Shown: one piece after another, positions 299 through 61,084 of the stretch | How the letters are laid out: the number at the start of each line of letters is the position of its first letter | Numbering within the stretch: position 1 is the stretch's first letter | Source of the DNA: an uncultured Acidobacteriota bacterium | GTDB lineage: Bacteria > Acidobacteriota > Thermoanaerobaculia > UBA5066 > Gp7-AA6 | Direction: 5' to 3' | Length of the DNA stretch: 64,000 nt | Assembly: GCA_963773905.1 (NCBI GenBank) | Contig: CAVZDB010000008.1 | Span: forward strand, 506,905-570,904 | The notes under the pieces: generated by a model | The model's database searches: none | The model's input: only the letters and a program-made list of their open reading frames with translations | Told to the model about the DNA's origin: nothing | Made by a program: the position numbers and the translations under genes

Positions 299-2344
299 AT
301 GTCGAGGATGCTTCTGCGCGGCGCAGGTCTTCTGAGCTTGCTCCTGTCGTCGTCTCTCGTGGTCGGCCAGGCGTCGCCGCCCGCGGGGAAGGGCATCCAG
401 GTCTCGGACATGGACCGGTCGGTCGAGCCCTGCACCGATTTCTACGACTACGCGAACGGCGGCTGGCGCGCCGCCAACCCGATTCCTTCCTCGATGCCGC
501 GCTGGAGCCGGCGCTGGGAGGCCGGCGAAAACAGCAAGGACCGCCTCAAGGGGATCCTGGAGGAAGCGGCCGCGGTCCAGGAGCCCGAGAAGGGCTCGAC
601 CGACCAGCTGATCGGCGACTTCTACGCCGCCTGCATGGACATGGGTTTGCGCAACGCCGAGGGACTGAAGCCGCTCCAGCCGATGCTCGCGGAGATCGCC
701 GCCATGAAGACTCCGGCGGATGTCCAGCGCGAGATCGGACGCCTGCAGCGGCTCCGGATCCTCGTCCCCTTCGCCGTGACCTCGGGGCCCGACAACCACA
801 GCCCGAACGACGTCATCACGCAGGTCCTGGCGAGCGGCCTCGGCCTGCCCGACCGCGACTACTACTGGAAGACCGAGCCGCGCTTCGAGGAGGCTCGCGC
901 GAGGTATCGGAAGCACGTGGCCGCGATCTTCCGCCTCGCCGGCTCGGACGCCGCGTCGGCGAAGGCCGCCGCCGAGACCGTGTTCCGCGTCGAGAAGGCG
1001 TTCGCGGGCGAATCGCTCGACAACGTCGCGCTGCGCGATCCGCGGGCGACCGACCACAAGATGACGCTCGCGCGAGCTCCAGAAGCTGACGCCCCGCTTC
1101 GACTGGAGCGCCCTCGTCCGGACGCTCGACCTGCCGGCGAGCGACGTGAACGTGGCCGAGCCGAAGTTCCTGAAGGAGGTCGACCGCCAGCTCGCGAGCA
1201 CCCCGGTCGCCGACTGGAAGACGTATCTGAAGTGGCAGCTCCTGGCCTCCGCCGCGCCGTCGCTCTCGGAGGACTTCGTCCAGGAGAGCTTCGCCTTCGA
1301 CGTCGCCTACCTCCAGGGCGCGAAGGAGAGGAAGCCGCTCTGGAAGCTCTGCGCCGAGTCGACGGACCGGCTGCTCGGCGAGGCGCTGGGCCAGAAGTAC
1401 GTCGCGAAGTACTTCCCGCCGGAGGCCAAGGCCCGCATGCAGGAGATGGTCAAGAACCTGCGGCTCGCGATGGGGGAGACCATCGAGGGCCTGCAGTGGA
1501 TGAGCCCGGAGACCAAGAAGAAGGCGCTCGAGAAGCTGTCGACGTTCAACCCGAAGGTCGGCTATCCCGACAAGTGGAAGGACTACAGCCGGGTCTCCAT
1601 CCGCCGCGACGCGTTCTGGGAGGACGTGGCCGCGAGCCGGCGATTCGCCTCCGAGGACGACCTCGAGCAGATCGGCAAGCCGGTCGACCGCGGCCGCTGG
1701 GGCATGACGCCGCCGACCTCGGACGCTTACTACAACCCGCTTCTGAACGAGATCGTCTTCCCGGCCGGGATCCTCCAGCCGCCGGCCTTCTCGATGGAGG
1801 CCAACGACGCGGTCAACTACGGCGCGATCGGCGTCGTGATCGGCCACGAGATCAGCCACGGCTTCGACGACCAGGGCGCGCAGTACGACGCGCAGGGACG
1901 GCTCGAGAACTGGTGGACGGCCGAGGACCTCAAGAAGTTCCAGGAGAAGACCGCGTGCGTCGCCGAGCAGTTCGACGGCTACTTCGTCGAGCCCGGCATC
2001 CATCACAACGGCCGGCTCGTCCTCGGGCGAGAGCATCGGGGACCTCGCCGGCGCGAAGATCGCCTACCGCGCGTTTCAGATCGCGCAACGAGGCAAGCCG
2101 CCCCTGCCCACGATCGACGGGTTCACCCCCGACCAGCAGTTCTTCATCAGCTTGGGGCCAGTTCCGCGGCGATGCCGTGCGTCCCGAGTTCGCCCGGACG
2201 ATGGTTCAGGGCGACCCGCATCCCATCGGCCAATACCGCGTCATCGGGCCGCTGTCGAACCTGCCCGAGTTCCAGAAGGCCTTCGGCTGCAAGCCGGACG
2301 CGCCGATGGTCCGCTCCGCCGACAAGCGGTGCGAGGTCTGGTAA
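299..2344 (+). pseudogene. M13 family zinc metallopeptidase (neprilysin/PepO-like), interrupted by >=3 frameshifts
   Basis: ORF 299..2344 begins with a signal peptide and the M13 N-terminal domain. The frame is lost near 1080-1150 and continues in ORF 1146..2351, which holds the 'VIGHEISHGFDDQG' HExxH zinc motif. A third frame reads 'ESIGDLAGAKIAYRAF' (~2030), then the original frame returns at ~2150 ('WGQFRGDAVRPEF...KRCEVW*'). TAGAAT -10-like hexamer at 268-273 and GGAGGG at 286-291 precede the ATG. Confidence 0.8.
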
Positions 2345-5860: not shown

Positions 5861-6172
5861 ATGTTGACCGTCGACACTGCCTTCGATCGACTCGGAACGG
5901 CACTCCGGCAGCGGGGATACGCCTTCAGCAGGGAGGAGACGCCGGAAGTCGTCGGCGACCGGATCTCCGTCTACACGTCCCCGAACATGTCGGTGCGCAT
6001 CGTCTGGTCGAGCAAGGCGAGGCTGCTGATCCTCCAGGTCAAGGTCGAGGGCGAATGGGTCGAGTTCGCGCGGCGCGGCTTCGGGCCCAACGGCCTGGAG
6101 GACACCGCCGTGGAGGCGCTGGTGCGCGCCGTGTTCAACGAGGTCGCGGAGACCTCGACGGACGCCGGGTGA
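5861..6172 (+). CDS. Hypothetical small protein (103 aa)
   Basis: Clean ORF with an ATG start, preceded by TAGAAT at 5828-5833; no recognisable domain. Confidence 0.4.
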   Translation: MLTVDTAFDRLGTALRQRGYAFSREETPEVVGDRISVYTSPNMSVRIVWSSKARLLILQVKVEGEWVEFARRGFGPNGLEDTAVEALVRAVFNEVAETSTDAG

Positions 6173-6480
6173 CGTCGCCGACGCGGCGCTCGGGATCTGC
6201 CGTTGGCGTCGTCTGCCGACGACGCCTCCTACTGCTGAGGGTCTGCCTTCGGTGGACGGATCGGGCACTGGCGGTCGGCTCGCCCAAAGGGGCTCGACCG
6301 ACCGCCTGATCCCTCGCTTCGCGTCGGCTCCCGCGGCGCGAGCCTCCTCCGCTGCCCTCGCGGAGACTTCTCGCGCCGCGGGCGATACGAGCAGTGCCTC
6401 TCGCGAGACGTGAAGGGGGCTTGATCCGAGGACGCGCATAGTGACACTCCCCTCGAGGCCATGACGGACGACGCGGCGCA

Positions 6481-7758
6481 ATGAGCGCGCGCCTCTCGCA
6501 GGGGCTCCGCGAGGTCCTGCGGCGGCTGCTCGGCCGGGCGCCGTCAGATTGGGCGGGACCCGATCCGGCGACCGAGGCCGTCCGGCGCGCCGCCCCTCCG
6601 GAGGAGGAGAACCGGCACGAAGTCGTCTGTCTCGGGCATACCGTCGACGATTTCGACGCGCGGCTGGCGTCGTCGGCCGCCGCGGGGCATCGCCTGTTCC
6701 TGGCGTCGGCCGGTCCGGTGGCCGAAGACGCGCCGTACGCGATCCGCGAACGGGGACCGCGCCTCTTCGAGGTCTTCCTCCGGGACCCCGCGGATGCCTT
6801 CGACGCGCTCGACCGGCTTCGGCGCGACGCGTCGCTGGGCGCGACGGTCGCCGTGGTCAAGGAGCGCGCGTGGCTCCCGCTCGCCGAGCGGCTCCGCGCG
6901 GAGCGCGGCTGGCGCGTGCTGGACCTCTCGGCAGGCGAGGGCCGGAGCCTCGGCGAGGCCGCGTTCGCCGCGGCGCTCGCGGACACCTTCCCGAAGATCT
7001 CGGTCGTCGTCGTCACGTTCAACAACCGTGAGCTCAACCGGGCCTGCCTCGAGAGCGTGTTCGCGCGCACCGGGTGGCCGCGCTACGAGGTGCTGGCCGT
7101 CGACAACGGGTCCACGGACGGGACTCCGGACCTCCTGGCGGAGCTCGCGCGCGCCCATGCGAATCTTCGGGTGATCGCGTTTCCCGAGAATCGGGGCTTT
7201 CCCGCCGCCTGCAACGCCGGTCTCGCGGCGGCGTCGGGAGATCCGGTCGTCCTCTTGAACAACGACACCGTCGTGACGCGCGGATGGCTGACCGCGCTCC
7301 ATCGCCACCTGGAGGCGAACACGAGGCTCGGGCTCGTGGGTCCGGTGACCAACGCGATCGCCAACGAGGCGCGGATCGAGGTCGGCTACGCGGACCTCGC
7401 CGAGCTGCCGCGCTGGGCGGCGGACTGGATCCGACGCCACGACGGCGAGACGTTCGACATCCCGATGCTTGCGTTCTTCTGCGTCGCGGCGCGGCGCGAG
7501 GTGCTCGCGGCCGTCGGTCCGCTCGACGAGCGCTTCGGCCTCGGGCTCTTCGAGGACGGCGACTACTGCCGCCGCGTGCGCGCGAAGGGATGGGACATCC
7601 GCTGCGCTCGCGATGCCTTCGTGCATCACTGGCAGAATGCCTCGTTCCGCCGTCTGGGGAAGGAGGCGTACTTCGCGCTCTACGAGGAGAACCGGCGCAA
7701 GTACGAGGCGAAGTGGGGGGAGAGGGCGGAATCTCCGAAGGAGACCGCGCCGCCCTAG
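6481..7758 (+). CDS. Family 2 glycosyltransferase with N-terminal domain of unknown function
   Basis: 'ISVVVVTFNNRELNRACLESV...LAVDNGSTDGT...NRGFPAACNAGL...LNND' GT-A/GT2 signature (DxD-type motifs). Confidence 0.8.
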   Translation: MSARLSQGLREVLRRLLGRAPSDWAGPDPATEAVRRAAPPEEENRHEVVCLGHTVDDFDARLASSAAAGHRLFLASAGPVAEDAPYAIRERGPRLFEVFLRDPADAFDALDRLRRDASLGATVAVVKERAWLPLAERLRAERGWRVLDLSAGEGRSLGEAAFAAALADTFPKISVVVVTFNNRELNRACLESVFARTGWPRYEVLAVDNGSTDGTPDLLAELARAHANLRVIAFPENRGFPAACNAGLAAASGDPVVLLNNDTVVTRGWLTALHRHLEANTRLGLVGPVTNAIANEARIEVGYADLAELPRWAADWIRRHDGETFDIPMLAFFCVAARREVLAAVGPLDERFGLGLFEDGDYCRRVRAKGWDIRCARDAFVHHWQNASFRRLGKEAYFALYEENRRKYEAKWGERAESPKETAPP

Positions 7759-10382
7759 GCGCTGTGCGGGACCACGGCCTCGAGCGCGCGGCGCAGGGCT
7801 GCGGCGACCTCCGGGCCGTGCTGCAGCACGAAGTCGGCGTGCGAGCCCGGGACCCGAAGGATCTCGCATTCGCCGCGGGCCAGCCGGCTCCAGGCCGCCG
7901 AGAATCCCCGGCGCTCTCCCTCCGCGCTCTCGATCAGCAGGACTCGTCCGTCGAACGGGGCCGGATCCCACGCGGCGGCGGCGGCCACGTAGGAGGCCCG
8001 GCGGCCGACGCGCTCCCAGTGGTGGCCCTCGGCGACGAGCCCGCGCGCCCCGACGCGCCCCATCCGCAGGACGTAGCCCGTCCGGCCGCGCTTCATCGCG
8101 CGGAGGACGGAGAGGTGATACGCGAGCCGCCGGCGGAAGTAGGAAACCCGCTCGAGGAGGCGGACCGCGCCCGGCGCATTGCGGCTCAGCCACACGCGCC
8201 GCCGCCGCGCGGGCGTGGGGTACGGCGCGTCCAGCAGGGCGAGGAGGGCCACCGACGCACCGTTCTCCCGCAGCCGCCGCGCCATCTCGAACGCGACCGT
8301 CCCGCCGACGCACTCGCCCACCAGAGCGTAGGGACCCTGCGGCGACCTCGCGCGCAGCTGCTCGAGGAAGCGCGCGGCGAGGACGGGCGCCGGGGGATGC
8401 GGCGGGGGCCCCGGGCGGAAGCAGAGGAACGGGAAGCCGCCTCCGGTCGATCGCGCGATCCTCCGGGCTCCGAAGACGTTCTCGCGGTCCCCCGCGCCTC
8501 CGGGGACCACGAAGACCGGCGTCCGGGTGCCGTCCTGGAGAACCAGCGGCGCGCTCTCCGTCGAGCCCCCGCTGCGGCGCGCCAAAGCCGCCAGGGCCGA
8601 GGGCGTCGGCGCCTCGAGCAGCTCCGCGGCGGAGAGCTCGACGCCGAGGGCGTCGGAGACGGCGGCGAGCGCCGTGACCGCCGCGAGGGAGTCGCCGCCG
8701 AGCTCGAAGAAGTCGTCGTCGACGCCGACGTGGCTCAGGTCGAGCGCCTCGCGGAACGCGCTTGCGACCGCGTCCTCCATCGGCTCGCACGGCGCGCGGA
8801 AGGGCGTCGCGAGCGGGGGCCGGCCGGAAGGCGGCGCCGGCAGCGCGGCGCGATCGACCTTTCCCGACGGCGTGCGCGGCAGCGCGTCCAGGAAGACGAA
8901 GGTGGACGGACACATCGAAGCCGGCAGCCGTTGCTCGAGCGACCGCCGCAGCGCGGAGAGCGTCGGCGGATTCTCGGTGCGGCGGACCACCCAGGCGGCG
9001 AGGCGCGTTCCCCGCGGCGTCTCGAACCCGCCCGCGGCCGCCTCGCGCACCCCCGCGACGTCGAGCAGCGCGGACTCCACCTCGGCGGTCTCGACGCGGT
9101 GGCCGCGCACCTTGAGGCGCGCGTCCTTGCGGCCGGCGTGCAGGAGGCAGCCGTCCGGCAGGAGGCGTCCGAGATCGCCGGTGCGGTAGAGGCGCCATCC
9201 CGCGCGGCCGGGCACCGGGAGAAACGCGGCGGCCGTCGCGCCGGGATCCTTCCAGTAGCCGAGCGCGAGCGTGCGGGCGCGCACGGCGATCTCGCCCTCG
9301 CCCTCGGTCTCGCGGCCCTCCTCGTCGAGCAGCACGACCTCGGTCTCGTCCACCCCGTACCCGAGCGGCGTGCCGCCGGGCCAGGGCGTGTCGTGCCCGG
9401 CCGACCAGTGCCGAATCACGTTCATCTCGGTCGCGCCGAATCCCAGATGGAAGGCGCAGGAGCGGGGGAAGCGGTTGCGGAAAAGGTCGAAGTCGGAGGC
9501 GAAAATGGGCTCGCCGCCGAGCCGCACGATGCGCAGGCTCGAGAGCTCCTCGCTCCCGTCGAGCGTCGCGGAGAAGCTGCGGAAGACGCTGGGAACCGAG
9601 TGACAGATCGTGATGGCTTCGCCGGCCAGGAACCGGGGCAGCCGGCGCAGGCCTTCGCCGCCGAGCGCGTAGGGGCACACCGCGGCCCCGTTGAGGAGAG
9701 CGCCGAAGACGTCGGACACCGATGCGCCCACGGAGACCGACGCGAGGAGCGCGAGCCGGTCGTCCGGCCGGATCGAGAGGGCGGCCGCGAGCTTGCGGAC
9801 GTTGTGGAGGACGTTGCGGTGGCTCTGCATCACGCCCTTGGGGGCGCCGGTCGAGCCCGACGTGAACAGCACGTACGCGAGCGCGTCGGGCGAGACCTCC
9901 CGGAGCTCGAGGGCAGCCGTCGTCTCGGCGCGGGGTCCGCCGTCCTCGAGCAGCTCTTCGGCGCACCAGATCGGGGCCCGGCCGCCGGCGAGGCCGCGCG
10001 CGGCGTCGCGCCTCGCTTCTCCCGCGACCAGGACCGCCGCGTCCAGGCCGCTCCCGATCGCCGAGAGCCGCGCCGCGGGCAGTCCCGGGTCGAGCGGGAC
10101 GTAGAAGCGTCCGGCCCGAAGGGCGCCCAGCATCGCCGCGAAGAGCGTCGCGCCGGGGTCCGCGAGGAGGGCGATCGGCCGGTCCGCTGACACGCCGGCG
10201 AGCCGCTCGGAGAAGGCGCGCGCGAAGCGAAGGGAGAGCGCGTCGAGCTCCGCGTAGGTCGTCAGACGGCCCGTAGCCGGCTCGCGGACGGCCGGCCGAT
10301 CGGGAACCGCGCGCGCGACCGACGCGAATCTTTCCCCGATCGATCGCTCGATCTCGGCCTTCTCGAAGGGGAGCGCGTCCAT
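7755..10382 (-). CDS. NRPS-like single module: adenylation - peptidyl carrier - thioesterase (A-PCP-TE), no condensation domain
   Basis: A-domain cores 'LAYVLFTSGSTGAPKGV', 'YRTGDLGR', 'GRKDARLKVRGHRVETAEVE', 'PSGKVDR'. PCP motif 'FFELGGDSLAAV'. C-terminal alpha/beta-hydrolase TE whose nucleophile motif is 'GECVGG', with Cys at 8310-8312. Confidence 0.85.
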   Translation of the reverse strand: MDALPFEKAEIERSIGERFASVARAVPDRPAVREPATGRLTTYAELDALSLRFARAFSERLAGVSADRPIALLADPGATLFAAMLGALRAGRFYVPLDPGLPAARLSAIGSGLDAAVLVAGEARRDAARGLAGGRAPIWCAEELLEDGGPRAETTAALELREVSPDALAYVLFTSGSTGAPKGVMQSHRNVLHNVRKLAAALSIRPDDRLALLASVSVGASVSDVFGALLNGAAVCPYALGGEGLRRLPRFLAGEAITICHSVPSVFRSFSATLDGSEELSSLRIVRLGGEPIFASDFDLFRNRFPRSCAFHLGFGATEMNVIRHWSAGHDTPWPGGTPLGYGVDETEVVLLDEEGRETEGEGEIAVRARTLALGYWKDPGATAAAFLPVPGRAGWRLYRTGDLGRLLPDGCLLHAGRKDARLKVRGHRVETAEVESALLDVAGVREAAAGGFETPRGTRLAAWVVRRTENPPTLSALRRSLEQRLPASMCPSTFVFLDALPRTPSGKVDRAALPAPPSGRPPLATPFRAPCEPMEDAVASAFREALDLSHVGVDDDFFELGGDSLAAVTALAAVSDALGVELSAAELLEAPTPSALAALARRSGGSTESAPLVLQDGTRTPVFVVPGGAGDRENVFGARRIARSTGGGFPFLCFRPGPPPHPPAPVLAARFLEQLRARSPQGPYALVGECVGGTVAFEMARRLRENGASVALLALLDAPYPTPARRRRVWLSRNAPGAVRLLERVSYFRRRLAYHLSVLRAMKRGRTGYVLRMGRVGARGLVAEGHHWERVGRRASYVAAAAAWDPAPFDGRVLLIESAEGERRGFSAAWSRLARGECEILRVPGSHADFVLQHGPEVAAALRRALEAVVPHSA

Positions 10383-10552
10383 AGCCGGCCGTTATTCGGC
10401 GGTCTTCGTCGGGCCGGGACTCGTCCCCGCCCGCAGTCGGCCGCGACCCGACCACCGAAGGCAAGCCCCCGGCAGTAGGGAACGTCGCGCCAGGCGCGCG
10501 ACGGTATCGCCGCCCCTACGTTCCTGTGGCGGTGCAGGGGAGAGGTCGCGGC

Positions 10553-12466
10553 TCATTCCGGCGCGCCGTACAGCGCCTGCAGGCGCGAATAGAACTCGAC
10601 GTTCCCCGGCCCGTGCTCGGGCGGGCCGATGCCGGAGGCCTTCCAGCCGCCGAACGGGGCGCTCGCGTCGGCGTCCGCCGTCGACAGGTTCCACTTGAGC
10701 ACGCCGCTTCGCGCCTCGCGGGCGAAGCGTTCGTTCCACGGTCCCGGCCCCGCGAAGAGCGCGGCGACGAGGCCCTGCGGCACGCCGTTGGCGAGGGCGA
10801 GCGCCTCCTCGAACGTCCGCGCCCGCTGAAGGACGAGGACGGGGCCGAAGGTTTCCTCCTGGACGATCGCGCTCTCGGGGGCCGCGTCGACGACCACGGT
10901 CGGCGGATGCCAGGCTCCCGCCCCGGCCGGAGCGGGAGAGCCGCGGTGCGGCGTCAGAACGCGCGCGCCGTCTGCGGCGGCCTCGGCGACCGCGGCCGCC
11001 ACGCGGTCCCGCGCCGGCGCGGAGACGAGCGGGCCGATCTCGGTCTCCGGATCGAGCGGGTCGCCCCAGCAGAGCGCGGCGACGGCGGCGAGCAGGCGCT
11101 CCAGGAGCTCGTCGAACAGCGAGTCGGCGAGGATGGCGCGCCGGTTCGCGGTGCACCGCTGTCCGGCGAACGCGAAGGCGCCGCGCGCCAGCGCCTCGGC
11201 CGCCCGCTCGAGGTCCGCGCCCGTCCAGACGATCGCGGCGTTGTTGCCGCCGAGCTCCGCCTGCAGCGGGATCCGGCGCCGCGCGCAGATCTCCTGCGCG
11301 GCCCAGCCCGCGGCCGAGGAGCCCGACAGCGTCACCGCATCGACGCTCGGATCGCTCATGACCGCCGCCGCGGCGCGATGGTCTCCGGCGACGAGGCCGA
11401 CGGCGCCGGCCGGGAGGCCCGCCGCGCGCGCCAGCTCGAGAGAGCGCTCGGCGAGGACGGTCCCCGCCGGCGCGGGCTTCCAGACCACGGTGTTCCCGAG
11501 CGCGAGGGCCGGACCGAGCTTGCCCCAGGGGATCGCGAGCGGGTTGTTCCAGGGCGTGATCGCGGCGATCACGCCGAGCGGCACGCGGCGAAAAGCGGAG
11601 CCAGGCCCCGCGGGCGCCGGCGCGGGCAAGGCGAGCGCCGCGGCGTGCCGAAGGAGCTCGGCGGTGCGCCGCACTTCCGCGCCGCCCTGCGTCACGGGCT
11701 TGCCGATGTCGACCGCCATCCGCCGCGCGAGCTCCGGACTCTCGAGCTCCAGCCGTTCCGCGAGGGCGAGGAGCACGCGGGCGCGGGCGTCGGGCGGGAG
11801 CGCGCTCCACCGCGCGTTCGCCGCGCGCGCGGAGCGTGCGGCCTGCGATCCGTCTTGCGCGAGCGCGGTCCGCGACGCGGTTCGCGCGGGCGCGTCGTTC
11901 GCGGATTCCGATCCTGCGTGGATCCGGGCGAGGAGCTCCGCGACGCTCGCGAAGCGCGCGGCGCGTCCCTCGAGGTAGCGGCGGGTCACGGCGGCGTGGA
12001 GCGGGTCGTCGCTCCCGACGGCGTCCTCGGCGATCCAGACCGCGAGACCCCGCTGGTAGGCGTCGAGCACCGTGGCGCGGACGCAGCCGTGGAGGTGCAC
12101 GCCGGCGACGAGGAGAGTGTCGGTCCGGGCGGCCGCGAGCGCGCGGTCGAGCTCGGGCGCGGAGAAGGCGGAGAAGAAGGCCTTCGAGACCGTCGCCTCG
12201 CCGGCCGCGGGCGAAAGCTCCGGCGGTTCCGCATGGCCCGGGGTGCCGCGGACGCAGCGCAGCCGCCGCTGCTCCCTCCAGTGCGGCATGGCGCCCTCGC
12301 CCGAGGCGTCGACGGACGTCACGGCGTGGATGACGGGCACGCCCGCCGCGCGCGCTCCCGCGAGCAGCCGCCGCGCGTTCGCGACCACGACCCGCGCCGC
12401 CGGCTCCAGTCCCGGGGCGCTCAGGAAATCGTCTTGCAGATCGACGAGGAGAAGGACCGGCCTCAT
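10553..12466 (-). CDS. Isochorismatase-family hydrolase fused to aldehyde dehydrogenase
   Basis: The N-terminal ~190 aa is isochorismatase-like ('LLLVDLQDDF...LVAGVHLHGCVRATVLDA'). The C-terminal ~440 aa is ALDH ('ELGGNNAAIV', catalytic 'FAGQRCTA'). Its start overlaps the upstream stop (ATGA at 12463-12466). Confidence 0.8.
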   Translation of the reverse strand: MRPVLLLVDLQDDFLSAPGLEPAARVVVANARRLLAGARAAGVPVIHAVTSVDASGEGAMPHWREQRRLRCVRGTPGHAEPPELSPAAGEATVSKAFFSAFSAPELDRALAAARTDTLLVAGVHLHGCVRATVLDAYQRGLAVWIAEDAVGSDDPLHAAVTRRYLEGRAARFASVAELLARIHAGSESANDAPARTASRTALAQDGSQAARSARAANARWSALPPDARARVLLALAERLELESPELARRMAVDIGKPVTQGGAEVRRTAELLRHAAALALPAPAPAGPGSAFRRVPLGVIAAITPWNNPLAIPWGKLGPALALGNTVVWKPAPAGTVLAERSLELARAAGLPAGAVGLVAGDHRAAAAVMSDPSVDAVTLSGSSAAGWAAQEICARRRIPLQAELGGNNAAIVWTGADLERAAEALARGAFAFAGQRCTANRRAILADSLFDELLERLLAAVAALCWGDPLDPETEIGPLVSAPARDRVAAAVAEAAADGARVLTPHRGSPAPAGAGAWHPPTVVVDAAPESAIVQEETFGPVLVLQRARTFEEALALANGVPQGLVAALFAGPGPWNERFAREARSGVLKWNLSTADADASAPFGGWKASGIGPPEHGPGNVEFYSRLQALYGAPE

Positions 12467-13540
12467 TCCGCCCGGCGCGCGCGCCGCTCGACCCTCGCGG
12501 CGATGCGCCGGCCCATCTCCTCCGTGCCGACGACGATGGTGCCCGGGGACGCCACGTCGAAGGTCCGGAAACCGAATTGGAGGACCTCCCCGGTCGCCTC
12601 CTCGATCCAGGCCGCCTCGCGGTGGAGGCCGAAGCTCTCGCGCAGCATCATGGCGAGCGAGGAGATCTGCCCGATGGGGTTTGCGCGGTCTTTGCCGGCG
12701 AGGTCCAGCGCGGAGCCGTGGTTGGTCTGGTAGACCGCCGCGCCCGTCTCGGAGAAGTTGCCCGAGAACGACATGCCGCGCGACGCGAGCAGGACGGCGC
12801 CGAGGTCGGCGAGCACGTCGCCGAAGAGGTTCGACGCGGCGATCACGTCGAACGCGAGCGGCTCCTGGATGAGCAGGTACGCGGTGAGGTCGATGTCGAG
12901 GACGCGCAGCGCGACGCCGGACGCCGCCGCCGCCTCGCGGCCGAGGTCGCGCCAGAGCGCGCTGACCGTCGGAAGGCCGCCGTCCTTGATCACGACCGTG
13001 AGCTTCTTGCGCCGCGACGCGGCGAGCTCGGCCGCCACCGAGAGGAGGCGGCGGACGTGCTCCTCGGCGTAGTGAAAGGCGTGGCGGCAGAGCCGTCCGC
13101 GCTTGGGGTCGAGGAGCCGTCCCACTCGCCGAGGTATTCGCCGCCCGTGTTTTCGCGGACGACGAGGATGTCGGCGCCCTCCACGCTCGAGCCCTTGAGT
13201 CGGCCGGCCTCCTGGAGGGCCGGAACGGGCCGGAGGGGAGAGAGCTTGCAGAAGAGATCGAAGCGCGGGCGGAGATCGTAGACGAAGCGGCTGCCCCCGG
13301 GCCCGGCGAGGACGGCGCCCCCTCCGCCGAAGACGTTCTCGCAGAAGCCGGAGACCTCCTCCGTCAGCGCCTTCCCGGAGAGCATCTCGGCGTCCCGCCC
13401 GATGGGACCTCCCCTCGTGATGGTGAAGCGCGCCCCCCCGCCTCCGCCGCCGACAGCACCTCGAGGGCCGCCGCGAGGACTTCGGGCCGACTCCTTCCCC
13501 GGGGAGGACGCCGACCGCGAAGCTCCCGCTCGACGGCGCG
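12463..13540 (-). pseudogene. Isocitrate/isopropylmalate dehydrogenase family (LeuB/tartrate dehydrogenase-like), >=3 frameshifts
   Basis: The C-terminal half is intact in ORF 12463..13812 ('...KKLTVVIKDGGLP...'). 'ILVVRENTGGEY' sits in the ORF 12990..13643 frame. The N-terminal 'AVGVLPGEGVGP' + 'PEVLAAALEVLSAAEAGG' pieces lie in two other frames. One frame switch coincides with a C7 run at 13431-13441; the 5' boundary is approximate. Confidence 0.7.
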
Positions 13541-13776
13541 AGCCGCGGCTCCCGGAAGACGGCGGCCGTCCACCGGCGTTCGCTCCTGACGAGATCGGAT
13601 GCTTGGCGCAAGCGGACCCCTTTTGCGCCGGAAGTGTATCCAACGCGGACGGTCCCGAGCCAGTCGCACGGGCGGACCGCAGGAAGGGGGAGGCGGCCGC
13701 CCGGGCGGCTCGCCTCGGGATGTCCTCCGAGCCTCCGCGCCGCGGTTCTCGGGCCGCGCGGGACGGCGGCCCGCGG

Positions 13777-14060
13777 ACTAAGCCGCGGGACGCGACCGGA
13801 CCCGCGACGCAACCACCTCCGCGACGTGCTCGGCGTCCCGGCCGACGCCGTGGATCATGGTCGAGGAGAGCGCGTAGAGGAAGAACAGCCCCACGAAGTA
13901 CAGGCCGGGCTCGCCGGCGGCGACGCCGCGCTCCTGGATCGGCTCGTGGTGCGCGCCGAACCCGAAGGTCGATCGGGGCTTCTTCCGATCCGCCCGCGAC
14001 AGCGCCTCGGCCGCCCGGCTCCAGGCCCGGCGCCTGTAGTGCTCGCGCGCCAGCTCGAGG
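13777..14060 (-). pseudogene. Remnant of an FAD-dependent monooxygenase C-terminus (gene fragment, no start)
   Basis: Minus-strand translation '...EPGLYFVGLFFLYALSSTMIHGVGRDAEHVAEVVAS...*' resembles the conserved C-terminal tail of flavin monooxygenase/CzcO-like oxidoreductases. It is bounded upstream by an in-frame TAA, with no room for a full gene. Confidence 0.3.
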
Positions 14061-14126
14061 TCCTTCAGCGCGAGCCTCGGAGCTTAACCTCCCCGCAGTG
14101 GGCCGGGCGGCGTACCCGCGCCGGCG

Positions 14127-14855
14127 TCAGGGCTGGTTCGGCGCCTTCGGGGGATCTCCCGGTCTTGCGACGACCGCGTTCGCCGGAGCGTACGCGTCGG
14201 TCACGCCGGGGACACCGTCGTAGTTCCAGTTGCTCGGCGGCGGCGAGGCCATGTCCGCGGGATTGACGGGCGCCGGCGGAGGCTCGCTGAAGTAGGTCAC
14301 CGAGCCGCCGCCCTCCATGGGCAGGTTCCCGATCAGCTTGGCGCCCTTCTCCTCCTGCTGTGCCTTGAAGGCCGGCAGCCCATGCAGATAGGACACCTGT
14401 TTCACGTCCGTCTGGCGCACGGTCATGAGCTTGCCTTCCTTCCAGGTATGGAAGACGTAGCTCTTTTGCTTCAGCTCCGGGATTTCCCGGGCGAGGATCC
14501 GTCCCGACGGCAGGAGCTCGATCTGGTAGACGGCGAACTTGTCGAGCTCCTGCGTCCGCTGCCGGACTCCCCGAACCCGGGCCTTGGGAAGGTGGACGAC
14601 GTCTCTGTCGGGCCACACCGTAAAGACGTAGGCGTCGCCCTCCAGCACGGGCTTGTTCAGCGCGAAGGCGGATCCGGAAGGCACGAGGTCGAGCTCCCAG
14701 ATCTCCATCACGTCGACCTTGGCCTGTCCCTGCATGCCGATCATCGGGGTGGCGCGGGGCGCCGGAGGCTGCTGCGCGGGAAGCGCGGAGGCGGCCAGGA
14801 CGAGCAAACCCGTCATCCATGCGGTTCGACGCATTTTGGACCTCGCTTTGTTCAC
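14127..14855 (-). CDS. Secreted hypothetical protein (signal peptide)
   Basis: N-terminus 'MRRTAWMTGLLVLAASALPAQQ' (alternative start at 14834), Pro-rich C-terminus, no known domain. Confidence 0.6.
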   Translation of the reverse strand: MNKARSKMRRTAWMTGLLVLAASALPAQQPPAPRATPMIGMQGQAKVDVMEIWELDLVPSGSAFALNKPVLEGDAYVFTVWPDRDVVHLPKARVRGVRQRTQELDKFAVYQIELLPSGRILAREIPELKQKSYVFHTWKEGKLMTVRQTDVKQVSYLHGLPAFKAQQEEKGAKLIGNLPMEGGGSVTYFSEPPPAPVNPADMASPPPSNWNYDGVPGVTDAYAPANAVVARPGDPPKAPNQP

Positions 14856-14952
14856 AGTTTAACCCACCGGCCCGAACCTTTTCGGTGGGCTCCCGTATCT
14901 CTTGTCGATTGACTACAGGAGCCCCCGCTGGGGCGGGGACAAGGAGGACCGC

Positions 14953-15888
14953 ATGAAACGCCGCGAGTTTCTCAAGTCATCGGCGGCCGTCGGCTTCGCC
15001 GCCGCCCTGCCGAACGCGTCCGGATGGCTCGGAAGGATCCCGGGCCCGGGCACGGGCAAGGAGGCGCCTGCCGAGAATCCCGTGCGGCCTCTGAAGCCGC
15101 CGGCGTTGGGGCAGATCCCGGTCGCGTTCCTGCTCACGGAAGGCGCGGTCCTCATCGACTTCGCGGGGCCGTGGGAGGTCTTCCAGGACGTCCTGGTTCC
15201 CAGCCGGGGCGCGTCGATGGAAGAGCAGATGCCGTTTCTCCTCTACACCGTGGGCGCCGACACGCGGCCCATCCGCGTCTCGGGCGGCCTGCAGATCGTG
15301 CCCGACTACGCCTTCGCGGATGCTCCCGCGCCGAAGGTCATCGTGATCCCGGCCCAGAAGGGAAGCCCCCAGGCCGAGGACTGGGTCCGCACCGCGGCGA
15401 AGTCGTCCGACGTCACACTGTCCGTCTGCACCGGCGCGTTCCTTCTGGCGCGCACCGGCCTTCTCGCCGGCAAGTCCGCGACGACCCACCACTCCTCCTA
15501 CCGCACCCTCGCCATGCAGTTCCCGGACATCCACGTCCGGCGCGGCGTTCGTTTCGTCGACGAGGGCTCGGTCGCGAGCGCCGGAGGCCTCTCCTCCGGG
15601 ATGGACCTCGCGCTGCACGTCGTCGAGCGCTACTTCGGCCGCGGGGTCGCGACCGAGACGGCGTACCAGATGGAGTACCAGGGCCAGGGCTGGCTCAACC
15701 CGGCGTCCAACGCGGTCTACCTGCAGGCGCGCAAGGCCCACGGGCATTCCTTCTGCCCGGTCTGCGACATGGAAGTGGATCCGGCGACCGCGCCGAAGTC
15801 CGTCTTCAAGGGGAAGACGTACTCCTTCTGCTCCGGAGAGCACAAGGAGACGTTCGACGCCGCCCCGGAGAAGTGGCTGGAGCCCTAG
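14953..15888 (+). CDS. Tat-exported DJ-1/PfpI-family protein with C-terminal YHS metal-binding domain
   Basis: Twin-arginine signal 'MKRREFLKSSAAVGFAAA'; DJ-1/PfpI core with nucleophile elbow 'VCTGAFLLA'; C-terminal 'CPVCDMEVDPATAPKSVFKGKTYSFCSGEHKETF' (YHS). RBS AAGGAGGA at 14940-14947. Confidence 0.8.
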   Translation: MKRREFLKSSAAVGFAAALPNASGWLGRIPGPGTGKEAPAENPVRPLKPPALGQIPVAFLLTEGAVLIDFAGPWEVFQDVLVPSRGASMEEQMPFLLYTVGADTRPIRVSGGLQIVPDYAFADAPAPKVIVIPAQKGSPQAEDWVRTAAKSSDVTLSVCTGAFLLARTGLLAGKSATTHHSSYRTLAMQFPDIHVRRGVRFVDEGSVASAGGLSSGMDLALHVVERYFGRGVATETAYQMEYQGQGWLNPASNAVYLQARKAHGHSFCPVCDMEVDPATAPKSVFKGKTYSFCSGEHKETFDAAPEKWLEP

Positions 15889-26828: not shown

Positions 26829-26905
<77 letters not shown>

Positions 26906-29927: not shown

Positions 29928-32447
29928 TTACCTCTGCGCCTGGTACTGCGACGACGTCGCGACCAGATAAAGCGCCTGTCGGGCGCGTTTGAGCGTGTCC
30001 GTCGCCGGCGTGACCGCGTTGACGGCCGTGATGATGGAGTTGCGCATGTCGTCGGACATCGTGCCGTGCATGAGCAGGCGGTTGAGCCGGTCGACGAGGT
30101 TGCCCGCATTGGGCGCCAGCTCCTGCAGCTCGGTGAAGTCGATCGAGGTCCCGTACGGCGTGTCCGTTCCGCTCGGCTGGATGCCGCCGCCGAAGGTCAT
30201 CGTGTTGACGAAGTTGGCGCGCCTCAGCGAGGTCGAGGCGTCCTCGATGCCGAACTCGGGGCCGAACACCTCCGCGGAAGCCGGCGGCGCGAAGTAGTCC
30301 TGCGGGAAGTAGCTGAACACCGTCGGCGGCCTGAGCAGGTCCTGGCCCATGTTGCGGTTCTGGGCGTTGATGTTGCCGTCGCTCTGGTTGAGCCGGTTGG
30401 TGGACTCCGGATCGAACGCTCTGAGCACGTTGAGCACGTAGAGCACGGGCTCCTTCAGCTTGCCGTAGTTGGGATCCGACGGGGCGACGCGCGCCTCGGG
30501 GTCGAGCAGGATGGCCTTGACCACGGCCCAGAGGCTGCCGCGGACGCCGTTGCCGTCGTCGTTGAACGCCCAGGCCACGCGCTCGACGTAGGCCGTACTC
30601 GGGTTGGACGTCACGAGGTTGTGGATGAGCTCGCGGGCGACGTAGGGTCCGATGTTCGGGTGGTTGAAGAGCGCGTCGATCGCCGCGTTGAGCTCGGGGA
30701 AGCCCTGCACGTTGCCGGGGATGGAGGTCGGCGCCCCGACGCCGTCCTTGTTGGGAAGGAAGCCCTGGAACAGGACCTTGTCGGTGACGTCGTGCTTGGT
30801 GTCGTCGAAGATCATCGGGTTCAGGTAGTCCGCGCAGACCGAGCCCTGCTGGCTGGCCGGATCACACGCGACGTTGCTCTGGATCTTCCAGCCCGTCAGG
30901 ACCAGCTTGAGGTTGTCGATGACCGACTGGTCGTAGGTGGGCATCGCCTCGCCGCCGCCGTCGACCTGGACCGTGCCGTCCATGCTGAGGAGGTCCGTCC
31001 CGATCGAGAACAGCTGCATGATCTCGCGCGCGTAGTTCTCGTTCGGGTTGGTCTTCGTGTTGGTGTTCATGTTGAGGTAGAGACCCATTCCCGGATTGAG
31101 CGAGACGTTGTAGAGGATGTCGCGGTAGTTGCCGAACGCGTTGTTGTAGAGGAGGCTCAGGTACGAAGTCATCTGGCTCGGACGCGTCAGCACGACGCCC
31201 GAGGTGACGTCGATCTTGTGCAGCGCCCAGGCGACCCGCTGGCGAAGCTGGTCCGGGTTGTACATCGCGTTCCTGAAGAACCCCACCTGGAGCTGATACA
31301 GCGTGTAGTTGTCGCGGTGGCAGATGCCGGTGGTGCAGTCGACCGGGGTCGACGGCGCGTTGTCCGGCCAGAGAGGCATCAGGGGCGGGGCCGAGTTGAA
31401 CAGGGAGAACTGTCCCCCCATCCACGGCAGGTAGCCCTGCGCCAGAACCAGGCCGACGTCGGCGTCGCTCGGTCCCCAGCTCGCCTGCTCGAGGAACCGG
31501 ATGCCTTCGGGGCGGTGGAACGCCTTCGCCATGAAGACCGCCATCTGGCCGCGGGTGTTCGCCAGGTTGGGGCAGAAGTCGTCGTTGCCGCAGCCGACGG
31601 TGACCTTCAGCCGCGCGAGCTCCTCGATCCAGGGGATCAGGGGCGCGAGGGACGGATCGCTGAGCGGGCAGTCCGGGAACACACCGGTCGCCGGGGGCGG
31701 AACGTGGTCGACGCCCTCGTATACCTTGAGGAGGAACACGGCCATCTGGGCGCGGGTCACCGAGTTGTTCGGGCAGTAGGCCGGCAGGCCGCCATGGCCC
31801 GGATCCGGGCCCGTGCAGCCGCCCGTGATTCCCTCGGCATGGAGCTGCTCGATCCAGTCGGCCGCGAAGTCGGACGCACCGACGTCCCAGAAGACGGTGC
31901 CGGAGGCTCCCGGCGGAACGTATCCGCCGCCGTGCTCGGCGCGCAGCAGGAACACGGCCATCTGCGCGCGCGTCACCGGGTCGTTCGGGCAGTAGTTGCC
32001 GTTGAGGCATCCTGCCGTGATCCCATCACGCAGGATGCGCTCGACCGGCGCATGGAACGGGCTCGCCGCCGGCACGTCGCTGAAGTCGGCGAACCATCCG
32101 AACGGGATCGTGGAGTCGCCGCCTCCGCCCGGATTGGTGACGACGACGTCGTACAGTGCGCCCGCCGCGAGCGCCGGCATCGTCGCGCCGATTCGGGTGG
32201 GGTTGTGGTACGTGACCGAGACGGGCACTCCACCCACCGTCACGGTCGCCCCGTTTTGAAACTGGTTGCCCACGATTGGCACAACCGTTCCTCCCGATGC
32301 GGGGCCGGACGCCGTATAGAGATACGACGCCTGAAAGGTCGTGGCCCCGTGGAGGAGAGCGGCGGATCCGAAGATCGCTGCGAGCGCCGCCACGCCCGTT
32401 CGTCGTGCGAGAACCTTCCCGCGAGAGCCGGTCACCCGTTCCCTCAT
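29928..32447 (-). CDS. DUF1800 family protein with N-terminal IPT/TIG-like domain and three SLH domains
   Basis: The C-terminal ~550 aa carry the DUF1800 hallmark 'NENYAREIMQLFSIG'. The N-terminus has an IPT-like beta domain then 3x 'F.DVP...W/F.IE.L...GIT.GC...YCP....TRAQMAVFLLK'. This is the canonical DUF1800/DUF1501 pair. Confidence 0.85.
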   Translation of the reverse strand: MRERVTGSRGKVLARRTGVAALAAIFGSAALLHGATTFQASYLYTASGPASGGTVVPIVGNQFQNGATVTVGGVPVSVTYHNPTRIGATMPALAAGALYDVVVTNPGGGGDSTIPFGWFADFSDVPAASPFHAPVERILRDGITAGCLNGNYCPNDPVTRAQMAVFLLRAEHGGGYVPPGASGTVFWDVGASDFAADWIEQLHAEGITGGCTGPDPGHGGLPAYCPNNSVTRAQMAVFLLKVYEGVDHVPPPATGVFPDCPLSDPSLAPLIPWIEELARLKVTVGCGNDDFCPNLANTRGQMAVFMAKAFHRPEGIRFLEQASWGPSDADVGLVLAQGYLPWMGGQFSLFNSAPPLMPLWPDNAPSTPVDCTTGICHRDNYTLYQLQVGFFRNAMYNPDQLRQRVAWALHKIDVTSGVVLTRPSQMTSYLSLLYNNAFGNYRDILYNVSLNPGMGLYLNMNTNTKTNPNENYAREIMQLFSIGTDLLSMDGTVQVDGGGEAMPTYDQSVIDNLKLVLTGWKIQSNVACDPASQQGSVCADYLNPMIFDDTKHDVTDKVLFQGFLPNKDGVGAPTSIPGNVQGFPELNAAIDALFNHPNIGPYVARELIHNLVTSNPSTAYVERVAWAFNDDGNGVRGSLWAVVKAILLDPEARVAPSDPNYGKLKEPVLYVLNVLRAFDPESTNRLNQSDGNINAQNRNMGQDLLRPPTVFSYFPQDYFAPPASAEVFGPEFGIEDASTSLRRANFVNTMTFGGGIQPSGTDTPYGTSIDFTELQELAPNAGNLVDRLNRLLMHGTMSDDMRNSIITAVNAVTPATDTLKRARQALYLVATSSQYQAQR

Positions 32448-32763
32448 AGAGACATTCCTTCCTGACGTCTGTCAATGACGCCAAAAAGCCGGCTTGTGGG
32501 AGTGCCGTGCACTATATCACAGGCCTGGCGGGTCAAGGCCCCGCCGGCAGGACCCGCCGAAAGAGGCGTGCATGCCGGGGAAAACCCGAGCAGTTGAACG
32601 AAGCGGGGCAAGATCCTGAGAGACTAGGCGGTTAGCGCCGCAGGATCGACTGCCCAGCGGGGCGAAAGAAGGACACTGACCTTGTGGGGGCCTCCACTCT
32701 GGCCGTTCGGGCAGGTGTCATTCCCGGGGGGCGCGGCCGATAATCGCTCAAATACCGACACCC

Positions 32764-45863: not shown

Positions 45864-45927
45864 TCGAGGACCTGAACCGGACTCTCGCCGGTTTGGGACG
45901 CACGCCTCGGCGATCGGCGGAAGGCGC

Positions 45928-57580: not shown

Positions 57581-58759
57581 CTAGAAGCGAAGCAGCTCTG
57601 CAGGCGCCTGGCCCGGGTTTCCTGAGGCAATCCAGAATTCGAGGCCGTCGCTACAAGCTCCCCAAGGAAATGTCGATCCCGCGGTGGAATTGCCGATCGG
57701 CGCAAGGTCGGAAGCATTCCAAACAGAGACGCTCGGCGGCGCCGTCTGATTCGTAATCAAGACACGTTGTCCGTCGAACGCTGTGCCGTAAGGATTGCCA
57801 AGGCCGTTCCCCCTCAAAGTGGCGATGAGCAGCCCCGTCGACGCCTGCACGACGGCCACGGTGTTCGAGCCGTTGATCGGGACCCAGATGTTTACTCCGT
57901 CAAACACGGGGAAGAGAGGATGGGTTCCGACCGGGACCGTCTGGATGACACTCCCGCTCGAGTCGAGCCTCAGGAGGGCGCCGGCGCCGAAATCGGAAAT
58001 CCAGATATCGCTACCGTCGAAGAGCGCTCCCTCGGGAAGCGAGAATCCAGTCGTCACCGTCATGACCGTCCATGGCAGGCTGGTACTCGGAGTCACCCGC
58101 GAGACAGAAGCGCCTCCATAGTTCGCAGTCCAGAGAGATGCTCCGTCGAAGGCGATGCCGAGTGGAACTCCACCGAGGTTCGAGGCGACTTCCGTCGCAT
58201 CTCCCGCAGGTTGGCTCGGGTCGATGAGGAAGAGCCCACCGGTGTTGCCGCCCGGAGTTCCGTCGCCTGTTACGAAGATTCGGCCCATTGCGGGTAAGAG
58301 GCCAAATCCCCCGGGGATACCGGTCCAGGCTTCGAGAAGCCTCCCGTCGTTCGCACGCACCCGCGCCGCGCCTCCGTTCACGGCCGCCCAGACGTCCATT
58401 CCATCAGCGGCACATGATTTCGGATAGTTCCCGAGAATCGTCGAGCCGAGCCCGATGTCCCAGTGCGGCGTCGTCGTCCACCACTGCCCGAGCGCCGCCC
58501 GGCGGCTGTTGCGAGCGAGCGACTGGTTGAGCCCCTTCGCGATGAAGACCGCGCCCTGGCCGCGGGTCAGCGGATCGTCGGGCGAGAACGTCGTCGCCGA
58601 GGTGCCGGCGGTGATGCCGAGGTAGTAGAGCTCCAGGATGAACGGACAGAAGGCGGGCGTCACGTCGGTGAACGGCCCGCATTGGTCCTGGACGATCTTC
58701 ACGGCGCCGCCGGCGAGGACGGCGGCGAGGGCGAGGGGGAGAATCAGGATCTTCTTCAT
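57581..58759 (-). CDS. Secreted SLH-domain + YVTN/NHL-like beta-propeller protein, paralog 1
   Basis: Signal 'MKKILILPLALAAVLAGGA'; 'FTDVTPAFCPFILELYYLGITAGTSATTFSPDDPLTRGQGAVFIAKGL' (SLH-like); ~40-aa propeller repeats ('DGxxIWVxN...V..V.AS.G'). Confidence 0.75.
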   Translation of the reverse strand: MKKILILPLALAAVLAGGAVKIVQDQCGPFTDVTPAFCPFILELYYLGITAGTSATTFSPDDPLTRGQGAVFIAKGLNQSLARNSRRAALGQWWTTTPHWDIGLGSTILGNYPKSCAADGMDVWAAVNGGAARVRANDGRLLEAWTGIPGGFGLLPAMGRIFVTGDGTPGGNTGGLFLIDPSQPAGDATEVASNLGGVPLGIAFDGASLWTANYGGASVSRVTPSTSLPWTVMTVTTGFSLPEGALFDGSDIWISDFGAGALLRLDSSGSVIQTVPVGTHPLFPVFDGVNIWVPINGSNTVAVVQASTGLLIATLRGNGLGNPYGTAFDGQRVLITNQTAPPSVSVWNASDLAPIGNSTAGSTFPWGACSDGLEFWIASGNPGQAPAELLRF

Positions 58760-59936: not shown

Positions 59937-59938
59937 AC

Positions 59939-61081: not shown

Positions 61082-61084
61082 GGG

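Follow-up and report, generated by a model that had tools for sequence, protein, structure and literature searches.

Synthetases that resemble nonribosomal peptide synthetases (NRPS) may consist of a single module, in which an adenylation (A) domain is followed by a thiolation (T) domain and a thioesterase (TE). The fungal enzymes AtrA, TdiA and HapA and the bacterial RalA and EchA are of this A-T-TE type. They have no condensation (C) domain, they lack the Asp which binds the alpha-amine of an amino acid, and the 2-oxo acid that they load comes from an enzyme encoded in the same cluster. In these systems the 2-oxo acid is aromatic, is made by an aminotransferase and is dimerised to a quinone or furanone. 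A 64,000-nucleotide stretch of DNA from an uncultured Acidobacteriota bacterium (contig CAVZDB010000008.1, positions 506,905 to 570,904; this whole stretch is referred to below as the window) harbours a 5.9 kb operon of three co-oriented genes which belongs with the NRPS-like A-T-TE systems. The operon codes for a synthetase composed of A, peptidyl carrier (PCP) and TE domains (A-PCP-TE), a fusion of an isochorismatase-like hydrolase with an aldehyde dehydrogenase (ALDH), and a dehydrogenase of the Iso_dh family resembling 3-isopropylmalate dehydrogenase (IPMDH). It is alike to the described A-T-TE synthetases in the single module, in the absence of the C domain and of the amine-binding Asp and, as proposed below, in the supply of a 2-oxo acid by a clustered enzyme. 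It differs from them in its partners, an IPMDH-like dehydrogenase and an amidase-ALDH, in a substrate pocket with a His and a Lys or Arg, and in the Cys nucleophile of its TE; no aminotransferase was found in any of the ~30 operon neighbourhoods. Nothing like this operon has been characterised and several of its unusual features are testable, while nothing yet shown on it would strongly surprise a specialist.

The operon, its domains and the convergent gene of a family 2 glycosyltransferase (GT2) are arranged in the window as follows.

12463-13611, minus strand: gene of the Iso_dh-family (IPMDH-like) dehydrogenase; TTG start at 13611, restored product of 383 amino acids (aa)
10553-12466, minus strand: gene of the isochorismatase-like hydrolase-ALDH fusion; open reading frame (ORF) of 637 aa
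11969-12457, minus strand: isochorismatase-like cysteine-hydrolase domain; residues 4-166 of 637, E=9e-37
10577-11866, minus strand: aldehyde dehydrogenase (Aldedh) domain; residues 201-630, E=5e-115
10383-10552, minus strand: spacer of 170 nt between the fusion gene and the A-PCP-TE gene
7755-10382, minus strand: A-PCP-TE gene; ORF of 875 aa
8859-10322, minus strand: adenylation domain; AMP-binding, E=8e-62, with AMP-binding_C
8583-8771, minus strand: peptidyl carrier domain; PP-binding, E=7e-15
7800-8519, minus strand: type I thioesterase domain; triad Cys691 (8310-8312)/Asp718/His848
6481-7758, plus strand: GT2 gene, convergent with the operon; ORF from the ATG at 6481

The E-values of the Pfam matches exclude chance. 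The layout given in the original prediction, which had been made from the letters alone, holds for the ATGA stop/start overlap of the Iso_dh and fusion genes at 12463-12466, for the 170-nt gap at 10383-10552 and for the tail-to-tail glycosyltransferase, the end of which (7758) overlaps the stop of the A-PCP-TE gene by 4 nt. The three co-oriented minus-strand genes proposed to run from 13540 to 7755 are also present, but position 13540 is not the start of the dehydrogenase gene, which begins with the TTG at 13611. Both domains of the predicted isochorismatase-ALDH fusion were recovered by Pfam. The same is true of the stand-alone A-PCP-TE without a C domain: its Pfam domains, A-domain motifs, the Ser565 to which phosphopantetheine (Ppant) is attached and the TE triad are all in place, and neither the 875-aa protein nor any ORF around it showed a C domain (PF00668).

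More than 100 full-length orthologs of the A-PCP-TE protein were found (41-85% identical, ~860-900 aa), along with at least 117 close homologs each of the hydrolase-ALDH fusion and the Iso_dh protein. The few orthologs that bear names come from metagenome-assembled genomes (MAGs) of Thermoanaerobaculia/Acidobacteriota, in line with the Acidobacteria-like genome guessed beforehand. Since a HMMER search of the full database with the TE domain returned only 14 cluster representatives at E<=1e-30, the A-PCP-TE family is compact and lineage-restricted. Gene neighbourhoods were gathered by exact-protein look-ups (loci L081-L089) and by a metagenome scan in which only the TE domain was aligned (L090-L130); a contig scan with full-length alignment yielded 80 unrelated NRPS loci sharing generic A-domain motifs (L001-L080), none of them with Iso_dh or isochorismatase neighbours. 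All informative loci (~25 contigs, L081-L114; A-PCP-TE 40-100% identical) contain the three-gene unit. Where the A-PCP-TE is 50% identical or more and the contig holds sufficient upstream sequence, its gene is always immediately preceded by the hydrolase-ALDH gene, the Iso_dh gene is upstream of the fusion gene wherever the contig reaches that far, and the orthologous operon genes overlap or stand 0-14 nt apart. Between the window and the syntenic locus L088, the ratio of nonsynonymous to synonymous substitution rates (dN/dS) is 0.19 for Iso_dh, 0.32 for the fusion and 0.24 for A-PCP-TE, and the three-gene unit is under purifying selection. The linkage of the upstream redox and hydrolase genes with the synthetase, as claimed before, is supported by this conservation and selection.

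Fusions add to this picture. The isochorismatase-ALDH fusion is universal in the family, and in a distant clade the Iso_dh domain is itself fused to the isochorismatase domain, the reading frame being kept across a short linker in L129, with L118 99% identical over the junction. Taken together, the locus is a genuine NRPS-like operon that is conserved and under selection, and it occurs only in uncultured Acidobacteriota. Literature searches yielded no account of these genes in combination, nor anything relevant on biosynthetic gene clusters of Thermoanaerobaculia or on arginine roles in IPMDH. A protein of 1501 aa that appeared to be an isochorismatase-ALDH-A-PCP-TE fusion (P0061, L081 10001-14506) was rejected as an out-of-frame read-through: owing to an indel near L081:11437, the ALDH C-terminus is thrown into the frame of the next gene, kept open by high GC. 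In high-GC MAGs built from long reads, frameshifts may be hidden in long open ORFs and give rise to false fusion proteins, which calls for caution in 'Rosetta stone' inference.

Automatic annotation names the orthologs '3-isopropylmalate dehydrogenase' and 'alpha-ketoglutaric semialdehyde dehydrogenase', as would be expected if housekeeping or catabolic genes, namely LeuB, a semialdehyde dehydrogenase and an acyl-CoA-ligase-like enzyme, stood side by side by chance. However, the scores against the respective hidden Markov models (HMM) are far under the equivalog cutoffs. The Iso_dh protein reaches 215 bits with the leuB model (TIGR00169; cutoff 353) and hence does not qualify as LeuB, and the ALDH domain reaches 277 bits with its best model, that of alpha-ketoglutaric semialdehyde (alpha-KGSA) dehydrogenase (NF042993; cutoff 770). 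Moreover, the three genes co-occur strictly, have overlapping start and stop codons and are involved in two domain fusions, the active-site substitutions of the Iso_dh protein are invariant family-wide, and the A domain is of the NRPS type and has a carrier and a TE in the same protein. Conservation of the unit and the fusions effectively refute a chance assembly of housekeeping genes, and we regard it as highly improbable.

The closest PDB match of the A domain is LgrA (E=6e-118), and its score with TIGR01733 (307 bits) is just short of the cutoff of 317. The core motifs A3 (TSGSTGxPKG), A5 (TE), A7 (YRTGD), A8 (GRxDxQxKxRG) and A10 (PxxxxGK) are invariant among 21 orthologs. Extraction of the specificity code, as the original prediction had recommended, gave G219 A220 S223 H261 R287 G289 G314 V322 I323 K508 in the window (GASHRGGVIK), without the usual Asp235. 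Of the 21 orthologs, which go down to 42% identity, 20 have the code GASH[K/R]GGVIK or depart from it at no more than one further position, and the code is repeated in the A-PCP-TE of the distant clade (~40% identical). Position 235 (PheA numbering) is occupied by Gly in all orthologs but one, which has Ala; in an alignment to the Ser-activating A domain of FscH, Gly stands opposite Asp235 and His opposite His278. In addition, the A5 motif reads GATE instead of GPTE, the Pro being replaced by Ala, Ser or Thr throughout the family.

Because Asp235 is replaced by Gly, the A domain is predicted, almost certainly, not to be an amino-acid activator. Comparable changes are described in a 2024 review (PMC11253843): in A domains for alpha-hydroxy acids a small aliphatic residue takes the place of Asp235, with Gly in enniatin synthetase A1, in the alpha-keto-acid A domain of StsA, Ile occupies position 235 and Met replaces the A5 Pro, and the P483A mutant of LgrA acquires keto-acid activity. 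With both Asp235 and the A5 Pro lost and these precedents for hydroxy- and keto-acid A domains, the domain very probably loads a 2-oxo or 2-hydroxy acid. The earlier suggestion that the module activates an amino, aryl or hydroxy acid should be amended accordingly: the amino option falls, and a 2-oxo or 2-hydroxy acid is favoured instead. The conserved His278 together with Lys/Arg299 suggests a polar or anionic side chain. 2-Oxoglutarate and 2-hydroxyglutarate were considered as substrates on the grounds of the Glu-like His278/Gly/Gly/Val pocket pattern and of the best HMM of the ALDH domain, that of alpha-KGSA dehydrogenase; this evidence was judged too weak to commit to either acid.

The carrier domain has its Ppant attachment Ser565 (nt 8688-8690) in the motif FFELGGDSL, invariant among orthologs. 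The nucleophile of the TE domain, Cys691, stands in the alignment where NocB and EntF have their catalytic Ser and AB3403 its Cys; of 21 orthologs, 19 share this Cys and two have Ser, and Asp718 and His848 are invariant. An AlphaFold2 model of the domain (mean predicted local distance difference test, pLDDT, of 86) was matched by Foldseek with a probability of 1.0 to TEs of NRPS and polyketide synthases (PKS), AB3403, EntF, NocB, Vlm2 and Pks13 being the best fold matches. TEs with a Cys nucleophile are known to make strained rings, a beta-lactone in the case of ObiF1 and a beta-lactam in the case of SulM (PMC6668435, PMC11298585). The operon TE shares with these two and with AB3403 the type I fold and the Cys for Ser in GxCxG, and AB3403 is its top neighbour in both sequence and fold. 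These NRPS termini differ in that they belong to C-A-T-TE modules acting on amino-acid-derived peptides. ObiF1 and SulM were not among the sequence matches of the TE domain at E<0.01; the operon TE appears no nearer to them than to Ser-TEs, and its own family includes the two members with Ser. Judged by its sequence, it does not seem to be specifically related to the TEs of ObiF1 and SulM.

Both active sites of the hydrolase-ALDH fusion are intact. The hydrolase domain contains an amidase-type triad (Asp9-Lys95-Cys128) and the ALDH domain the catalytic residues Cys438, Glu404 and Asn307, all of which are conserved in 115-117 of 117 fusion orthologs. The closest PDB entries to the hydrolase domain are uncharacterised isochorismatase-family proteins (3hu5) and N-carbamoylsarcosine amidases, and no NCBIfam equivalog cutoff is reached. 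The closest structures to the ALDH domain are ALDHs of the muconic-semialdehyde type, and many ALDH subfamilies score about equally on it. A 2,3-dihydroxybenzoate pathway like that of EntB/EntE was rejected: the hydrolase Cys is of the amidase type, there is no isochorismate synthase or short-chain dehydrogenase/reductase (SDR), and the A-domain code is unlike what we take to be the codes for aryl acids.

The Iso_dh homolog is ~36% identical to IPMDHs (residue numbers below are presumed to be those of Thermus thermophilus IPMDH). As in LeuB and other beta-decarboxylating dehydrogenases, Arg94, Arg132, Tyr139 and Asp217/241/245 are kept, being invariant among 118 family members, and Lys185 is aligned in the HMMER alignment. 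Unlike in LeuB, Arg104 is Ser in 118 of 118 members and Asn102 is Lys in 117, a 12-residue deletion takes out the Glu87 loop which shapes the alkyl pocket, the score falls below the leuB cutoff, and the gene is always clustered with the NRPS-like gene. The Iso_dh fusion of the distant clade likewise has Lys102 and lacks Arg104. By its sequence, this NAD(P) dehydrogenase keeps the catalytic Tyr/Lys pair and the metal-binding Asp residues of the Iso_dh superfamily of metal-dependent beta-hydroxyacid dehydrogenases and has lost one of the three Arg residues that bind the substrate carboxylates. When the change corresponding to IDH1 R132H was put into homoisocitrate dehydrogenase (HICDH), the reaction switched from oxidative decarboxylation to reduction of a 2-oxo acid (PMC10638295). 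By analogy, that the Arg loss turned the Iso_dh family towards 2-oxo-acid reduction may serve as a lead.

In this assembly, the Iso_dh gene is not contained in one frame. The Pfam Iso_dh match in the window ORF covers profile positions 157-347 only, and a three-frame translation combined with a scan of GC content at third codon positions (GC3) placed the N-terminal 40% of the gene in other frames. As reference for the frame comparison by tblastn and blastn, the syntenic contig L088 was used, which is 85% identical and comes from a short-read assembly. The comparison located the start at TTG 13611, with AAAAGGGG just before it, and revealed three 1-nt deletions, at 13484 (GGGG to GGG), 13437 (CCCCGCCC to CCCCCCC) and 13118. 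Hence, the earlier assignment of the gene to the IPMDH family stands, and its reading as an intact single frame from 13540 does not. With the three bases restored, the 383-aa protein has an identity of 86% with its counterpart in L088 and of 93% with the best intact homolog.

Three 1-nt deletions within 370 nt of one gene could mean that the operon is decaying here, with Iso_dh as a true pseudogene, a truncated monooxygenase gene at its flank and no product made. Compared with L088, ~2.7 kb is indeed gone between the gene of a 242-aa secreted protein and Iso_dh, comprising a GerE/TPR regulator and most of a gene similar to flavin monooxygenases (FMO), of which the following is left.

13781-13960, minus strand: remnant of the flavin-monooxygenase-like gene; last 60 codons

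The remnant is 93% identical to residues 357-416 of its L088 counterpart, which is encoded by a complete gene immediately upstream of Iso_dh; this gene does not form part of the conserved unit. On the other hand, the 64-kb window contains at least nine frame breaks, affecting also unrelated genes, namely an M13 peptidase gene and two Ser/Thr-kinase paralogs, and related contigs from Flye-style long-read assemblies show similar artefacts, with fragmented genes in L089 and the false fusion protein in L081. Given these frame breaks and artefacts, the three deletions are probably assembly errors of the long-read type. Two of the three deletions fall within runs of G or C, nonsynonymous and synonymous differences are as frequent in the shifted segments as elsewhere in the gene (pN 0.06-0.09, pS 0.37-0.39), and the other two operon genes are intact. 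It is therefore unlikely that Iso_dh is a true pseudogene, and decay of the whole operon at this place seems to us equally improbable.

As the explanation of the whole, we tentatively put forward, with somewhat less than even confidence, a self-contained carrier-protein-dependent pathway, encoded by three co-transcribed genes, from which a glycoconjugate would receive an unusual acyl substituent. The amidase-type hydrolase would unmask an aldehyde-bearing precursor and the ALDH would turn the aldehyde into a carboxylate. The Iso_dh-like enzyme would set the 2-oxo/2-hydroxy state; to this end it would either decarboxylate a substituted malate oxidatively or simply interconvert the 2-oxo and 2-hydroxy forms. 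The resulting 2-oxo or 2-hydroxy acid, with its polar or anionic side chain, would be adenylated, thioesterified on Ser565 and handed to Cys691 of the TE, which may transfer the acyl group to an acceptor hydroxyl or amine instead of releasing it by mere hydrolysis. The most likely acceptor would contain a sugar, with the TE working as an acyltransferase like that of Pks13, which moves its acyl chain (mycolate) to trehalose; in this genome, the convergent GT2 may act on the same molecule.

The first part of such a route is known from Pseudomonas, where pantothenate is degraded by pantothenase, dehydropantoate dehydrogenase and 3,3-dimethylmalate dehydrogenase (EC 3.5.1.22, 1.2.1.33, 1.1.1.84) to 2-oxoisovalerate. 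There, too, an amidase, an ALDH that yields a substituted malate by generating its beta-carboxylate, and a decarboxylating dehydrogenase of the malate type lead to a 2-oxo acid. The likeness is one of logic only: the operon has no alcohol dehydrogenase step, its pocket looks ill-suited to 2-oxoisovalerate, and the genes of the Pseudomonas pathway are not known to have been defined. In a similar way, DltABCD, AlmEFG and the Pks13 TE follow the sequence of adenylation, carrier thioester and transfer to a sugar-containing acceptor, a logic which the operon would share; the evidence for this is gene adjacency, to GT2 here and to Wzt, GT-C and GT4 genes in the distant clade. The Dlt and Alm systems load D-Ala or Gly and rely on separate membrane acyltransferases, whereas the operon would have to use its fused TE as the transferase, for an acid that is not an amino acid.

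The GT2 is soluble, its homology to orthologs starts near 6580, and its best NCBIfam match is MftF with 81 bits only. The gene is convergent and adjacent in ~14 of 23 close loci; it adjoins the operon in the window, L081-84, L088-92, L094-96 and L098-100, and this adjacency is kept even where other neighbours differ. Thus, of the four-gene neighbourhood that was to be checked for conservation, the three-gene unit is general and the GT2 gene occurs in only ~60% of the close loci, as a frequent but facultative partner. In the distant clade (GC 55-57%), where the A-PCP-TE is ~40% identical and keeps the code, the GATE motif and the Cys-TE, the gene has other companions. The order in L113 is PhyH-like, Iso_dh, hydrolase-ALDH, A-PCP-TE, Wzt (ABC_tran + Wzt_C), PhyH-like paralog and PMT_2-like GT-C; in L125 Wzt directly follows A-PCP-TE, and in L116 a convergent GT4 gene lies beside it. 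Since four unrelated glycan-related families (GT2, Wzt, GT-C and GT4) recur beside the same enzyme in different lineages, a glycoconjugate is a plausible destination for the acyl group.

Nearly as likely is a refined form of the original prediction of an undescribed small metabolite, namely a minimal secondary-metabolite cassette. Here the A-PCP-TE would load the 2-oxo or 2-hydroxy acid made by the two upstream enzymes, the TE would free a small molecule by cyclisation (to a lactone or beta-lactone), oligomerisation or dimerisation, and the GT2 would be a mere neighbour. It remains so because the core unit also occurs without glycan neighbours: no glycosyltransferase of any kind accompanies it in L085, L087, L093, L104 and L114. 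An A-T-TE protein that lacks Asp235 fits the non-reducing NRPS-like enzymes which condense two alpha-keto acids, such as the bacterial RalA and EchA (PMC9047271, PMC10316625), and the ring-forming Cys-TEs of ObiF1 and SulM, as well as the oligomerising Vlm2 TE among the fold neighbours, agree with release of a free product. Yet the aminotransferase is missing and the His278/Lys299 pocket looks ill-suited to aromatic keto acids, the TE sequence is nearer to NocB, AB3403 and EntF than to ObiF1 or SulM, two orthologs have Ser in place of the TE Cys, and the four glycan-related families are found next to the gene in different lineages.

Several points speak against the proposed transfer to a glycoconjugate. 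All enzyme assignments are below the NCBIfam equivalog cutoffs. The code positions 322, 330 and 331 depend on the alignment, which has a local indel relative to FscH. The Arg lost from the Iso_dh family, which we take to be the equivalent of IDH1 R109, differs from the Arg mutated in the IDH1/HICDH precedent, and with the Iso_dh gene frame-broken in this assembly the operon might be non-functional here. As for the GT2, it is missing from ~40% of the close loci (L085, L087, L093, L103-105, L114) and, being convergent, is not co-transcribed with the operon; no other glycan genes were found next to the operon in the window.

If the glycoconjugate pathway is taken further, it might represent a new route of decorating or capping glycans in Acidobacteriota, in which an A-PCP-TE with a Cys-TE would put an unusual 2-oxo/2-hydroxy (di)carboxylic acid directly on a cell-surface sugar. 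The acid would come from a 'neomorphic' Arg-less IPMDH-like enzyme and the amidase-ALDH fusion, and in relatives it might be a terminal signal read by the adjacent Wzt exporter. We consider this extended form unlikely as it stands.

Acidobacteriota, most of which are uncultured, abound in soil, and little of their chemistry has been explored. The combination of a non-amino-acid A domain, a Cys-TE, an IPMDH paralog with a remodelled carboxylate site and an amidase-ALDH fusion has not been studied before, and the compact 5.9 kb cassette, with its code near-invariant across the lineage, is a realistic target for heterologous expression. Working out the operon would provide a new substrate class for tools that predict A-domain specificity and a natural role for an Arg-less member of the isocitrate/isopropylmalate dehydrogenase family, and might show how Acidobacteriota acylate their surface glycans.

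In the lower-GC sister clade (L113 2-10906; L116 1672-8134; L121 26-6825; L129 3732-5384), the same A-PCP-TE is surrounded by larger clusters. These contain two or three paralogous proteins of 327-339 aa with an HxD...H motif (weak PhyH match), and they also hold an SSF symporter, a Wzt ATPase, a PMT_2-like GT-C, a GT4 and the Iso_dh-Isochorismatase fusion.

The GC content of the operon is 75.2% as compared with 68.4% for the rest of the window. Horizontal gene transfer was considered as the cause and dismissed: an excess of +2 to +7 points recurs in most orthologous loci, though not in L087, so the difference is probably compositional. No further NRPS or PKS gene, no phosphopantetheinyl transferase and no MbtH gene was found in the 64 kb window, and Rfam detected no riboswitch or other RNA family in 6000-15000. 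The remaining genes are typical of Acidobacteriota and include Ser/Thr kinases with PD40/WD40 repeats, SLH proteins, a DUF1501/DUF1800 pair and TonB-type receptors; the sole tRNA gene of the window is tRNA-Asp(GTC) at 26829-26905 on the minus strand.

The frame-broken M13 peptidase gene (299-2341, plus strand) is spread over frames 2, 3 and 1/2 by at least three breaks, one of which is a GG to GGG run near 2027; its L088 ortholog is intact and encodes 686 aa. Three tandem paralogs of the Ser/Thr kinase with PD40/WD40 repeats occupy 40772-48434 with a period of ~2.5 kb, and the second (43327-45863, frames -3/-1/-2) and third (45934-48434, frames -3/-2), on the minus strand, are broken. Four tandem SLH-domain paralogs of ~1.17 kb, the proteins of which are 57-59% identical, are encoded at 57584-62266 on the minus strand, and further SLH repeats at 29928-34983 adjoin the DUF1800/DUF1501 pair. 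Such a pair is also present near the operon in L081, L084 and L089. Upstream of the operon, 14127-15888 contains a divergent gene pair, coding for the secreted 242-aa protein (no family match) and for a DJ-1/PfpI-YHS protein with a TAT signal; L082/83, L087 and L088 also have this pair close to the operon, in L087 on its opposite side.

A structured element of ~44 nt (core CCTACTGCNGRGGGYYTGCCTTCGGTGG) is present in two inverted copies, at 10444-10487 in the spacer between the fusion and A-PCP-TE genes and at 6220-6263 in the spacer that precedes the gene of the GT2. By chance, not a single match would be expected, and none was found in the 89 loci compared. The 170-nt spacer has a fold z of -2.5, and its orthologs have 0-14 nt instead (13 nt in L088). 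The element may be similar to repetitive extragenic palindromes (REP) or miniature inverted-repeat transposable elements (MITE), and it is resembled by a palindrome, GTAGGGGCGG...CCCCTAC, at 34840-34889.

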